From assembly GCA_963749155.1 (NCBI GenBank), contig CAVVLO010000002.1, forward strand, positions 1,376,001-1,440,000: 64,000 nucleotides of DNA, in the 5' to 3' direction. This DNA is from an uncultured Armatimonadia bacterium (lineage in GTDB: Bacteria > Armatimonadota > Zipacnadia > CAVVLO01). Made by a program: the position numbers and the translations under genes. How positions within the stretch are numbered: position 1 is the first letter of the stretch; each line of letters opens with the position of its first letter. Below the pieces are notes generated by a model that saw only the letters and a list, made by a program, of their open reading frames with translations, searched no databases and was not told the DNA's origin. Shown piece by piece: positions 47,401-51,517 of the stretch.

Positions 47401-48159
47401 GCAGCCACCGCTTCAGTCGGCTTGCCCAGCTCATCGGAGAAGAAGGCCTTGCGCGCCTGACCGCCAGCCACGTGGCAATCGTGGGACTGGGCGCTGTTGG
47501 CAGCTATGCGCTGGAGGGCCTGGCCCGCTCGGGAGTAGGCCGGCTGCGCCTGGTCGACTTCGATGAAGTGCGCGAGAGCAACTTCAATCGCCAACTGCTG
47601 GCTACCGAAGCCAGTCTTGGCCTTCCCAAAGTCGAAGCCGCCACCGAGCGCGTATTGTCCATCAATCCTGACTGCCAGGTCGAACCGCTCAAGCTGTTCG
47701 TCCACGCTGAAAGCCTGCCGGCAGTGTTCGGCCAGCCCGCCGGACCTGGTGCTGGACTGCATTGATTCCTTCAGGCCCAAGGTGGAATTGCTGTCGGGGG
47801 CACTCGAAGCTGGGGTGCCGGTGGCGAGTTCGATGGGCGCGGCGCTCCGCAGCGATCCAGCGCGTGTGCATACTGGCTCGCTTTCGGCAACGAGAGTCTG
47901 TCCCCTGGCTCGCAGGCTGCGCGCCGAACTCAGAAAACGGGGTCTGCCAACCGACCTGCCCTGCGTGTGGAGTGATGAGCCTCTGGACCCATCCTATATG
48001 CGCGAGCCTGAGGAAGAAGAGGCCTCGGGTGAGTATCAGCGGGGCCGACCGCGTCGCGTGCTGGGCAGCCTGCCTACGCTGACGGGATTGTTTGGCCTTA
48101 CCCTCGCCAACCTGGCGCTGGAATTATTACTGGGCGACCTCTGGCCGGGCCGCCACTAA
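47397..48159 (+). CDS. tcdA: tRNA threonylcarbamoyladenosine dehydratase (ThiF family), +1 frameshift near 47730
   Basis: VGLGAVGS, ARSGVG, DFDEV..SNFNRQ, DCIDS, SSMGAA, CPLARRLR, WSDE. Confidence 0.88.
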
Positions 48160-48970
48160 TCCTGGCGAGTGAAAAACTCCACCTGGGCGTCCTCGACTGC
48201 GGCCAGTTTCGCCTCGATAATCGGGCGGAAATCAGCGTTCAATTCGTAGCCAATCCCCTTGCGCCCTGTGAGTGCCGCCGCAAGCAGGCTCGTGCCGCTG
48301 CCACAAAACGGATCGAGGATAGTCTCCCCGACGAAGCTGTACATCCTGATTAGCCTCTCGGGTAGCTCAAGTGGGAACATCGCCTGGTGCTCCGCCTGCC
48401 GGTCGGGTTGAAGCCGCCACACTCCGCGAAACCATTCGCTGCGGTGCGCCTTCGCCAGCTTGCTTGCCTCTTTCTGTTCTGCGCTGACTTTGGGGCCGCG
48501 TCCAGGTTTCTTGAACAGCAGGATATATTCGTGTTCGTAGGTTATATGCCCATCGCGCGGCCAGTAGGTAGAACCCATCCAGCTTCCGCCGCCCGTGGTT
48601 TTGGTCGTCGAGATTTTGTGCCAGATGATACTGCCCATATAGTCGAAGCCTAGCCCCGTGCAGGTGGCAATCGTGTCGGCCCCGATGGGCGCCAGGCGAT
48701 ACCGGCCGTGCTCGGTGGCGCGCAGATACTGGTCTCCGATGTTGATGGCCAGCCGGCAACCGGTGTGAAGGGCGCGATGGCACTCCTTCCATACAAGCCC
48801 AAGGTCGGAAGATAGGCTTCATAGCTCTGGCCAAAGCCTATCTGGCCTTCATCCCCATAATCCTTGATAGACCAGTAGGGGGGAGAAGTGACGATGAAGT
48901 GGACGGAGCCATCTTCAAGCTCCGGCATCCCCCGCGAGTCGGCCAGCCAGATAATATGTCGCGTGTTCAT
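48156..48970 (-). CDS. Orphan beta-class amino (N4-C/N6-A) DNA methyltransferase, -1 frameshift near 48810
   Basis: VTSPPY followed by HQAMFPLELPERLI and ILDPFCGSGT; adding one base near 48810 gives one ORF via DLGLVWKECHRAL..INIGD. Confidence 0.88.
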
Positions 48971-49000
48971 AACCGCGAGGATTATAACAGCCAGCCGCGG

Positions 49001-49029
49001 TTTACGCTTTCAAGGGCCTTGTATATAAT
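49001..49029 (+). promoter_or_regulatory. Promoter of the thiC leader (back-to-back with an extended -10 for the methyltransferase at 48981-48989 on the minus strand)
   Basis: TTTACG-17 nt-TATAAT; minus strand TG-T-TATAAT. Confidence 0.65.
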
Positions 49030-49041
49030 GTAAGGCAGTCA

Positions 49042-49140
49042 GCCGCTGGGGGTGCTCCCGCAAGGGGGCTGAGAGCAAACCCTTCGCACCTGAGCCGGGC
49101 CGCAAGGCTCCCGCTGGATAATGCCAGCCAGGGAAGTGGT
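49042..49140 (+). ncRNA. TPP riboswitch aptamer (variant with an inserted hairpin)
   Basis: P1 GCCGCT/AGTGGT, GGGGTGC..CTGAGA..ACCC, ACCTGA, CTGGATAATGCCAG, AGGGAA; directly upstream of thiC. Confidence 0.88.
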
Positions 49141-49156
49141 AAGTCCGAGTCTAACA

Positions 49157-49187
49157 GGCGCCGCTCCGCACTCTGGGCGGCGCTTTT
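49157..49187 (+). terminator. Riboswitch expression-platform terminator
   Basis: GCGCCGCTC-loop-GGGCGGCGC followed by TTTT, between the aptamer and thiC. Confidence 0.7.
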
Positions 49188-49222
49188 ACTAGTGGCCTGC
49201 TTTACGGGCAAAGGTGATTCTG

Positions 49223-50509
49223 ATGACCCAACTCGAAGCCGCGCGTAGCGGTCAGATAACAGACCAGCTCCGACAAGTGGCTGAAGCCGAAGGCCTGCAA
49301 ATTGAACAGGTTCTCGGTGTCGTGGCTACCGGTCGCGCCGTAATTCCGGCCAACTCGACCTATGCTTTACCAAGTCCTCGGGGGGTCGGCAAAGGCCTTA
49401 CTACCAAGGTAAACGCCAATATCGGCACCAGTATGCATTATCCGGACGTCGAGACTGAAGTCGAGAAGCTCAAAGCTGCTGTCGAGGCGGGCGCCGACGC
49501 CGTGATGGATCTTTCTACCGGAGGCAATCTGAGAGAGATCCGGGCGCGTATCCGCGAAGCCTGCCCGGTGCCCCTTGGCACAGTGCCCATCTACGAGGCC
49601 GCCGCTCGCGCCAAGCGCGAAGGTCAGGGCCTGATAAATATGACCGCCGACGAATTGTTCGATGTCATCGAGACCAACGGCAAGCAGGGGGTGGATTTTA
49701 TAACCGTCCATTGCGGCGTAACGCAGAATTCGGTCGACCAGTTGCGAAGGCAAGGCCGGCTGATGGATATCGTCAGTCGCGGCGGGGCCTTCCTCACCGC
49801 CTGGATGGTCGCCAACGAGGCCGAGAATCCCCTTTACGAGCAGTATGACCGTCTGCTTGAGATATCTCGCAAATACGATATGACCCTCAGCCTGGGCGAT
49901 GGGTTGCGGCCTGGGTGCCTGGCCGATGCCACTGATCGCGGCCAGATAAGCGAACTCGTCGTCCTGGGCGAACTTGTGAAGCGCGCGCGCGAAGCCGGGG
50001 TGCAGGCGATGGTCGAGGGGCCAGGTCATGTGCCACTGAGTCAGGTGCCGACAAATATCCTGCTGCAGAAATCCCTCTGCGAGGAAGCGCCCTTCTATGT
50101 GCTGGGGCCGCTGGTGACCGATGTCGCGCCTGGCTACGACCACATTGTTGGCGCAATCGGGGGCGCGCTGGCCGCCCAATATGGCGCGGATTTTCTCTGC
50201 TATGTCACCCCCGCCGAACACCTCGGCCTGCCGACCGCCGAGCATGTGCGGGAAGGCGTCATCGTTAGCCGCATCGCCGCGCATGCTGGCGACATCGCCA
50301 AAGGCCTGCCAGGGGCGCGCGACTGGGACGATGAGATGGCCCGGGCCCGTAAGGCGCTCGATTGGCCGAAGCAACTCAGCCTTGCCCTCGATGAGCCCAA
50401 GGCCCGGGCTATCTACGAGGCGCGTTCTTCCTGTGAGGAAGAGGATGTCTGCTCGATGTGCGGCGAATTCTGTGCCGTGAAGCTGATCTCGGAGGTCCTC
50501 CAGAAGTGA
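49223..50509 (+). CDS. thiC: Phosphomethylpyrimidine synthase
   Basis: [55 protein letters not shown]. Confidence 0.98.
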
Positions 50510-51517
50510 ATCTCGGCGATCTGGGCGAGCTTGCGCTGGTCGAACACCTTGGTCGGTATCTGGCCGAAGAGGGCGGCCCACTGCTGCTCGGGCCAGGTCA
50601 TGATGCAGCGGTTGTCCTCCCGCTTGAGGGCAACCTGGTCTTCAAGGTAGATGCTCTGGTCGAAGGCCGGCACTTCGATTTGGCTTTCTCGACCCCCCAG
50701 CAAGTCGGTTGGCGCGCCCTGGCCAGGCCTGCAAGCGATATCGCCGCGGTTTCGGGCGCCCCGGATTATGCCCTGATAACTCTATTTGCGCCTGCCTCCT
50801 GCCCCGTAGAAGTGGTTGAGGGCCTCTACGAGGGCCTGGCAGAAGCCGCGAAGGCCTTCGGCACGAAACTGGTCGGTGGCGAGACCACCTCGGCAGAGGA
50901 ACTGGCTTTGTCGGTAGCTATCCTGGGCAGTGTCGAACCTGGCGAGTCGAAAGGGCGCTCAGGCGCGCGCGCAGGCGACAAGATATGGATAAGCGGCTTT
51001 CTCGGCGATGCGGCCGCGGGCCTTGCGATTTTGAAGGCCGGAGGCGTAACCGAGCTTGCAGCCAAATTTCTCCTTTCATCTGAAGAATCTGCCGCCCTGG
51101 CCACTTGCGTGGAACACCACCAAGCGTCCCCGCCCGCGACTCGCGCTGGGCAAGGCGCTTGGCGCCAATCCAGAAATTACCGCGATGATGGATGTGAGCG
51201 ATGGCCTGGTTATCGACTTGCACCGGCTTGCGAAGGCCAGCGGCCTCGTGGTGCGGCTTCAGCTCGAGGCTCTGCCCCTCTCCCCTGGCGCTCTCCTCGC
51301 CGCGCGGCTGCTTGGGCTTGATCCCCTGGCCCTGGCTTTGGGCGGCGGAGATGATTACGAGTTGCTAGTTTGTAGTACCCAGGACCTGCTGGATTGCGAT
51401 ATACTAAAAAAGCTGCTCCCAATCGGTCGTTTAGAGGAAACCGACGGGCTGGGTGGAAACGTATTAAGAGAGACTGGAGAGGTGCTGCCCCTTACCGGGT
51501 GGGACCACTTCGCGTAA
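50506..51517 (+). CDS. thiL: Thiamine-monophosphate kinase, +1 frameshift near 51121
   Basis: [50 protein letters not shown] overlaps the thiC stop. Confidence 0.92.

Follow-up and report, generated by a model that had tools for sequence, protein, structure and literature searches.

The RNA leader of thiC in the 64,000-nucleotide stretch of DNA analyzed here (the window) is a TPP riboswitch by descent and architecture, in which the guanine of J5/4 has been lost and a 20-nt insert lies between P4 and P5. It is the lost guanine, not the insert, that sets the element apart, and it is unique among the sequences examined. Continued function and choice of ligand are both inferences of ours, and with moderate confidence we read the RNA as an OFF riboswitch of TPP (THI-box) descent that would act on thiC and a thiL-like gene and would discriminate little among thiamin, TMP, and TPP. 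The features on which this reading draws are collected in Table 1.

Table 1. Features of the thiC leader and the genes that follow it (window coordinates)
Feature	Position	Strand	Basis
Promoter-like site, TTTACG-17 nt-TATAAT	49001..49029	+	10/12 matches; 1 site vs 0.1 expected in shuffles
Anti-terminator 5′ arm (5′ strands of P1, P2, P3)	49042..49055	+	Predicted pairing with 49168-49181
TPP-type aptamer, P1 5′ strand to P1 3′ strand	49043..49139	+	RF00059 alignment and base-by-base helix check
P1	49043-47/49135-39	+	Base-by-base check
P2	49048-51/49080-83, plus U49053-A49077	+	Base-by-base check
P3 hairpin, 6 bp, GCAA loop	49054-59/49064-69	+	RF00059 alignment, base-by-base check
CUGAGA pyrimidine-sensing junction (J3/2)	49069-49074	+	Sequence, RF00059 alignment
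P4, 5′ strand CCUG	49089-92/49129-32	+	Includes Watson-Crick G49092-C49129; pair probability 0.745
Insert between P4 and P5, 20 nt	49094..49113	+	Sequence, folding; favored hairpin P4a inside
P5/L5, CUGG-AUAAUG-CCAG	P5 49114-17/49124-27, L5 AUAAUG 49118-49123	+	Extendable by G49113-C49128 pair
Missing J5/4 guanine (G78, E. coli thiM numbering of PMC3764141)	site 49128..49129	+	Reads CC
Intrinsic-terminator-like hairpin and UUUU	49158..49187	+	9 bp, 49158-66/49175-83, GC-rich, 8-nt loop
Shine-Dalgarno-like AGGUGA	49212..49217	+	5 nt before ATG at 49223; sequence
thiC (phosphomethylpyrimidine synthase), 428 aa from ATG	49223..50509	+	PF01964 642.7 bits; NF009895 646 bits, cut-off 410
thiL-like gene (thiamine-phosphate kinase), two frames	50458..51517	+	Best matches thiL models, 154.6 and 146.9 bits

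Architecture of the thiC leader aptamer

A permissive local scan with RF00059, the alignment that the preliminary description of this DNA had proposed, placed the full model (positions 1-105) on nucleotides 49038-49151 and identified the RNA as a TPP-type aptamer with a score of 38.7 bits (E 2.7e-6 in a 351-nt search), the gathering score of the family being 54.3 bits. At the gathering threshold, an Rfam scan of the whole 64-kb window reported no TPP match, and over 48950-49300 no other Rfam family was found besides two chance-level matches (E 2 and 2.2). All helices from P1 to P5 could be confirmed base by base, with P1, P2, and P4 joined at the junction, and P3a is absent. The pyrimidine-sensing half had been described as canonical, and sequence and helix check bear this out for P2, P3, and CUGAGA, with the CUGAGA motif and the conserved P2 both present as RF00059 requires. 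In TPP riboswitches the U-turn loop of L5 (UAAU) docks on P3, and this loop, a further feature of the family, is present within AUAAUG. The position is likewise that of the family, in the leader of thiamine genes, with thiC and a thiL-like ORF 3′ of the aptamer. What is incomplete is the conserved pyrophosphate pocket: the equivalents of G60 and C77 are retained as G49092 and C49128, and the equivalent of G78 is gone. Because of the incomplete pocket and the score below the Rfam threshold, we class the element as a variant rather than a canonical member of the family.

Absence of the J5/4 guanine

In the TPP family J5/4 has CG and then one nucleotide, and in the thiC leader aptamer it reads CC, in agreement with the earlier observation that the conserved G is missing. 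J5/4 starts with CG in all 167 distinct TPP cores from other organisms among the matches listed, a deduplicated set drawn from class relatives (26), the genome scan (86, among the matches listed), and the metagenome scan (59), and a count that has to be read with the caveats that both scan patterns fixed the C and that the regular expression needed AGG within four nucleotides. Passages of one paper on the TPP riboswitch (PMC3764141) name G78 as the sole residue in direct contact with the pyrophosphate and give U59, A80, G60, C77, and G78 as highly conserved positions of the arm, and a passage of another (PMC5882874) gives a 'GCG' motif as the pyrophosphate contact.

The preliminary description had allowed that the missing guanine might be a one-base error, though the insert could not be. 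Twenty public runs, which belong to 13 studies of sediment, wastewater, sludge, digesters, lake water, and other sources, contain the sequence of 48950-49350. Contigs from three different studies, at a depth of 3.4-3.6, cover 48950-49272 (X2), all 401 nt (X4), and 49009-49265 (X9), so that the site of the missing guanine could be checked in each; a fourth run, X1, which may be the source, yielded no contig here and is uninformative. All three carry the insert and the CC with zero inserted or deleted letters, their aptamers are free of substitutions, and the sole difference from the window that they have in common is A>G at 49204, 3′ of the terminator. Because these contigs of three independent studies agree without an indel, the insert and the CC are real and not an assembly error. 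If the guanine were nevertheless missing through a sequencing or assembly artefact, the real RNA would be an ordinary insert-bearing TPP riboswitch; the frame splits of thiL and thiD described below do look like indel errors, and a G added after 49128 gives the CGC form of four class relatives (L015, L025, L029, and L031). The three contigs with zero gaps over the site largely refute this explanation, the site is not a homopolymer, and we regard an artefact as highly improbable.

A second contig of X2 shares 34 nt with the window (49060-49093, with 3 differences) and then continues into the TPP aptamer of another organism, which is insert-free and has a CGC J5/4.

The insert and the predicted fold of the P4-P5 arm

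Between CCUGA and P5 the thiC leader has 20 nt (49094-49113), where canonical aptamers have one. About 19 extra nucleotides had been thought to fold as a hairpin extending to C49096-G49113; an insert is indeed present, at 20 nt, but that register is disfavored: its pair probability is 0.002, and the arm so folded comes to -15.4 kcal/mol as compared with -20.0 kcal/mol for the minimum free energy (MFE) structure. The favored RNAfold structure of the arm (49086-49136) consists of a 4-bp P4, a hairpin P4a (49097-49101 with 49106-49110, closed by a GCAA loop), and a P5 of 5 bp that includes a predicted G49113-C49128 pair (probability 0.98), leaving six junction nucleotides unpaired at 49093-49096 and 49111-49112. 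In this fold the 3′ strand is predicted to be fully paired, with no J5/4, so that the internal loop for Mg2+ and pyrophosphate would become a three-way junction; the energies leave out tertiary and ligand contacts, and the G49113-C49128 pair is itself a prediction. Taken alone, the insert folds no better than shuffled sequences (z -0.64), and P4a has no sequence variants in the contigs examined.

Hairpin inserts at the same site in other bacteria

Relatives sharing the insert, for which the preliminary description had proposed a search, did not emerge from the class or from a sample of the phylum. None of 29 TPP matches from 26 of 40 class-level relatives has an insert between P4 and P5, the extra length in those aptamers sitting in P3, P3a, or J2/4, and the insert pattern was found in the own genome only, both among 79 genomes of the class (own included) and in a 401-genome sample of the phylum. 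Two class relatives, G022 and G028, have aptamers (L024 and L028) with an extra hairpin in J2/4, between the 3′ strand of P2 and P4, and these are also under the Rfam threshold, at 47.9 and 42.9 bits.

The insert recurs in other lineages. Its site, after ACCUGA and before the CUGG...CCAG P5, was used for pattern scans that returned at least 119 stretches from genomes sampled at one per species and 83 from metagenome contigs. Many of these matches are false, with ACCUGA sitting in P3a or J3/2; 64 other loci were judged true by eye, 7 of which the regular expression did not parse, and the rest amount to 47 distinct aptamers among the matches listed. All 47 have extra sequence at the exact P4/P5 site, and they belong to Actinomycetota, Bacillota, and metagenomes, with record titles that include many Thermoleophilia and other Actinomycetota MAGs, Desulfotruncus arcticus, a Desulfocucumis MAG, Desulfitispora alkaliphila, and several Bacillota MAGs. 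Inserts fold better than shuffled sequences (z below -1.5) in 36 of 48 sequences among the matches listed, the window included, with a median z of -2.6; folding of each sequence against its shuffles was preferred for the single-hairpin inserts because their variety in length and sequence makes a MAFFT alignment unreliable. Covariation, which had been suggested as a check, supports the insert helix in a Thermoleophilia-type group of 23 sequences with two inserted hairpins, where 98.7% of cells are paired, four pairs have compensatory double changes (17 cells), and the covariation score was reached by 0 of 500 shuffles and was far lower in all slid controls; it does not bear on the own P4a, which is without variants.

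Thiamine genes account for 21 of the 28 ORFs tested downstream of insert-bearing aptamers (ThiT/YuaJ 13, ThiM 5, ThiC 2, and a thiamine-binding protein 1), and the other 7, which have no Pfam match, are probably wrong automatic choices of ORF. J5/4 is CG[N] in 47 of the 47 other insert-bearing aptamers among the matches listed. The Rfam scores of 20 insert-bearing aptamers range from 32.4 to 54.5 bits, with 19 of the 20 below the gathering threshold, and because these aptamers with canonical pockets also fall short of it, the low RF00059 score of the thiC leader stems mainly from the insert. The presence of 47 other distinct aptamers with the same site among the matches listed means that the insert is not unique to this genome, and two expectations of the preliminary description change with it: length variation is not limited to P3, because P4/P5-site hairpins recur elsewhere, and the idea that the insert makes the RNA special is not supported, given same-site hairpins elsewhere that go with a canonical pocket and ordinary thiamine genes. 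The metagenome pattern scan found no element like that of the thiC leader, a result that says little about close relatives. Searches of the running text of papers found no description of a P4-P5 hairpin insert, and Barrick and Breaker (2007) discuss P3a alone.

These comparisons bear on whether the thiC leader might be a normal TPP-selective switch after all, with junction nucleotides (G49094, or C49112 together with an unpaired G49113) holding the Mg2+-pyrophosphate in place of the lost guanine. Strains share a conserved leader, as described below, G49092 and C49128 are still present as the G60 and C77 equivalents, and TPP would be the logical feedback signal because the last gene of the operon is the kinase that makes it. 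However, in the 47 other insert arms among the matches listed the junction nucleotides vary freely and the CG is always kept, so the insert does not normally stand in for the pocket, and the predicted MFE structure pairs both G49113 and C49128. We therefore consider a compensated pocket of this kind unlikely.

Every insert-bearing aptamer of the genome scan has a CUGG...CCAG P5, though the pattern left the two outer P5 pairs free, and P5 differs in sequence among the canonical aptamers recovered with them; the three-way junction may thus place a constraint on the base of P5. Some aptamers have, between P4 and P5, inserts of 14 nt (L072, L159, L165, L173, L210, and L212) or 12 nt (L157, L168, and L179) that do not fold as hairpins. 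The 14-nt insert includes GGUAAUGC, similar to a portion of the neighboring P5/L5 in the manner of a partial duplication, and in a metagenome contig (L209) the extra sequence before P5 looks as if CUGGUUAAUG, with which P5/L5 starts, had been duplicated in tandem. ThiT lies downstream of the short-insert aptamers L159, L173, L210, and L157 (4 of 4 tested), and the ORF behind L072 has no Pfam match.

An acquisition of thiC together with an insert-bearing leader was considered and dropped. Over its first 100 aa the protein has ~52% identity to the ThiC of L068, which is insert-bearing, and ~50-52% to those of canonical-aptamer loci, and identities so alike are uninformative.

Expression platform

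The promoter-like site would put the start of transcription just 5′ of the aptamer. Control of thiC and the thiL-like gene through a terminator had been proposed, and a hairpin with U4 does stand at 49158-49187 with both genes 3′ of it, which is consistent with such control. A simple consensus scan for terminators flagged nothing in the leader, and the U-tract is of four U only; the terminator call is kept on the explicit 9-bp stem plus UUUU. In the unconstrained predicted MFE structure of the leader (-68.5 kcal/mol), 49042-49055 pairs over 13 bp with the terminator loop and 3′ arm at 49168-49181, and the aptamer plus terminator amounts to about -51 kcal/mol. Such pairing of 5′ aptamer strands with the terminator is standard in OFF switches. 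In the mechanism that we propose, the 5′ strands of P1, P2, and P3 would pair with the terminator loop and 3′ arm when no ligand is bound, giving read-through, and a thiamine-type ligand would close the aptamer and so occupy these strands, allowing the terminator to form and turning the operon off.

Downstream genes and the thiamine pathway

ThiC is intact, and the BzaB exception model is under its own cut-off. The thiL model matches of the next gene are below cut-off and cover the N-terminal two-thirds only, and there is a frame shift near 51110-51130, in C-rich sequence with a CCCC run at the shift point, such that the frame of 50458-51321 encodes the AIRS N-domain and that of 51050-51517 encodes AIRS_C and the C-terminal continuation. 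The gene is as likely to be split by an assembly indel as to be a real pseudogene. The thiD gene (Phos_pyr_kin) is split as well, into two open frames 2 nt apart (G000:C2:358913-359622; L237 and L238) that match profile positions 1-95 and 97-242, with C-rich sequence at the break, and this is possibly a second assembly indel or a broken gene. If the thiL and thiD splits are real, the pathway and the switch might be decaying.

Elsewhere in the genome, contig 1 has thiM next to thiE, with no riboswitch match upstream of them; no ThiT was found in the whole genome, and ThiG and Thi4 gave weak matches only, none of them convincing. From this inventory (thiC, thiM-thiE, and no convincing ThiG or Thi4) the organism seems to produce its own pyrimidine moiety, by de novo HMP synthesis, and to obtain the thiazole by salvage. 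The genome has no TPP-like element besides the thiC leader, if an 18-bit RF00059 match taken as noise (E 0.9) is set aside.

On the other side of the leader, a DNA methylase ORF (160 aa) at 48156-48970 on the minus strand matches positions 78-219 of PF01555 only, and a 106-aa ORF without a family match lies 11 nt upstream of it; the methylase gene may be interrupted.

Conservation between strains

The X4 strain has seven listed differences from the window, all in 49263-49297 and six of them at third-codon positions; 5 of the 6 changed thiC codons leave the amino acid as it is, and the sixth replaces D14 by A. Differences number 1 in 245 nt for the leader, 0 in 97 for the aptamer, and 6 in 33 (~18%) for third-codon positions of thiC, so that Fisher tests against the third positions give p 1.2e-5 for the leader and p 1.9e-4 for the aptamer, figures that rest on one X4 contig of depth 3.6 with its differences clustered in 35 nt. 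A recombination boundary could mimic such conservation of the leader. The loss of the guanine predates the divergence of X4, because all three independent contigs are without it, and as far as comparison between these strains can tell, the pattern points to continued selection on the aptamer after the loss and thus argues for retained function.

This conservation is a reason to doubt that the aptamer was simply killed by a one-base deletion, in which case the leader would be left in an anti-terminated ground state with constitutive thiC, as a recent loss and perhaps within a decaying pathway. The missing residue is near-invariant and ligand-contacting, according to passages of PMC3764141, the MFE structure of the ligand-free leader is the anti-terminator, both thiL and thiD are frame-split, and ThiG or Thi4 was not convincingly found, all of which speaks for a dead aptamer. 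But the aptamer has 0 substitutions in 97 nt at a third-codon divergence of ~18%, all of its other features and those of the platform are intact, as is ThiC, and the frame splits fall in C-rich runs and may be assembly errors. We therefore judge a dead switch to be unlikely.

Ligand recognition and comparison with known systems

In the reading that we favor, that of an OFF switch with little discrimination among thiamin, TMP, and TPP, the P4a hairpin would be a peripheral decoration of the kind that recurs in other bacteria, and the functionally important change would be the loss of the J5/4 guanine, the direct pyrophosphate contact. Together with the G49113-C49128 pair, that loss would turn the pyrophosphate-binding internal loop into a three-way junction, and with the guanine gone and the 3′ strand fully paired, the ligand would be recognized mainly via the intact pyrimidine pocket, with thiamin, TMP, and TPP barely told apart. 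On this reading, the element may no longer distinguish thiamine from its phosphates. Altered specificity had been proposed in the preliminary description, and it is plausible because of the lost guanine only; the larger adduct, thiamine triphosphate, and the HMP derivative named there as ligands find no support.

A truly new specificity would require that the remodeled junction bind an HMP derivative, thiamine triphosphate, or an adduct. The pocket is remodeled, with six unpaired junction nucleotides in the favored fold, and since thiC makes HMP-P a signal from the pyrimidine branch is conceivable. However, the thiamine-pyrimidine pocket and the elements of L5-P3 docking are unchanged, no other Rfam family matches here, and the variant was not found in relatives and so provides no gene-association signal; the HMP-PP riboswitch, moreover, is a different, terminator-embedded RNA as described in part of PMC6478431. 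A new ligand is very unlikely, and in our ranking of the alternatives to the favored reading it stands behind the compensated TPP-selective switch and then the dead switch. It is also unlikely that the insert and the loss of the guanine belong together as a single adaptation, by which the internal loop was rebuilt as a three-way junction with either a new phosphate or ligand pocket or no reading of phosphate, placing thiC-thiL under a ligand set different from TPP alone.

The closest known system is the TPP riboswitch or THI element (RF00059; E. coli thiM and thiC leaders), which the thiC leader RNA resembles in P1 to P5, the GGGG...ACCC P2, CUGAGA, the AUAAUG L5, its position upstream of thiC, and its terminator-type platform, and from which it differs in the 20-nt P4-P5 hairpin insert, the missing G of J5/4 with the remaining C probably paired, the absence of P3a, and a score of 38.7 bits where the gathering score is 54.3. 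With the other insert-bearing TPP aptamers it shares the insertion point, where ACCUGA ends and a CUGG...CCAG P5 immediately follows the insert, and the low Rfam scores (32-54 bits), but those keep the CG[N] J5/4 and mostly precede ThiT or ThiM and not thiC, among the matches listed. The HMP-PP riboswitch (thiS motif), in the part of PMC6478431 that describes it, regulates the same pathway by transcription termination, and yet it is an unrelated small aptamer embedded in the terminator stem, whereas the thiC leader RNA is plainly TPP-derived.

The comparison most relevant to function is with TPP variants mutated in the pyrophosphate core (P4-P5), which, according to a passage in McCown et al. 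2017 (PMC5473149), bind thiamin about as they bind TMP and TPP; the same passage has them in many bacteria and cites them as Roth et al., in preparation. The thiC leader element has the mutated P4-P5 pocket by which those variants are characterized, a likeness drawn to a brief mention that comes without a consensus, sequences, or gene associations, and our literature searches found no full report on them.

TPP aptamers with a P4-P5 hairpin are a recurrent structured subclass, and because 19 of 20 score under the threshold of the Rfam model, real thiamine riboswitches of Actinomycetota, Bacillota, and other groups go unreported in routine annotation. The thiC leader element joins the insert with the loss of the guanine that contacts the pyrophosphate, and yet selection appears to maintain it ahead of a biosynthetic operon. 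If the insert and the loss were one adaptation, the element would be a case of natural pocket re-engineering by insertion. If it still switches, it would add a thiC-thiL operon to the known range of the 'thiamin-reading' TPP variants mentioned in brief by others, and it would offer a simple natural test of how far the recognition of TPP needs the J5/4 guanine.
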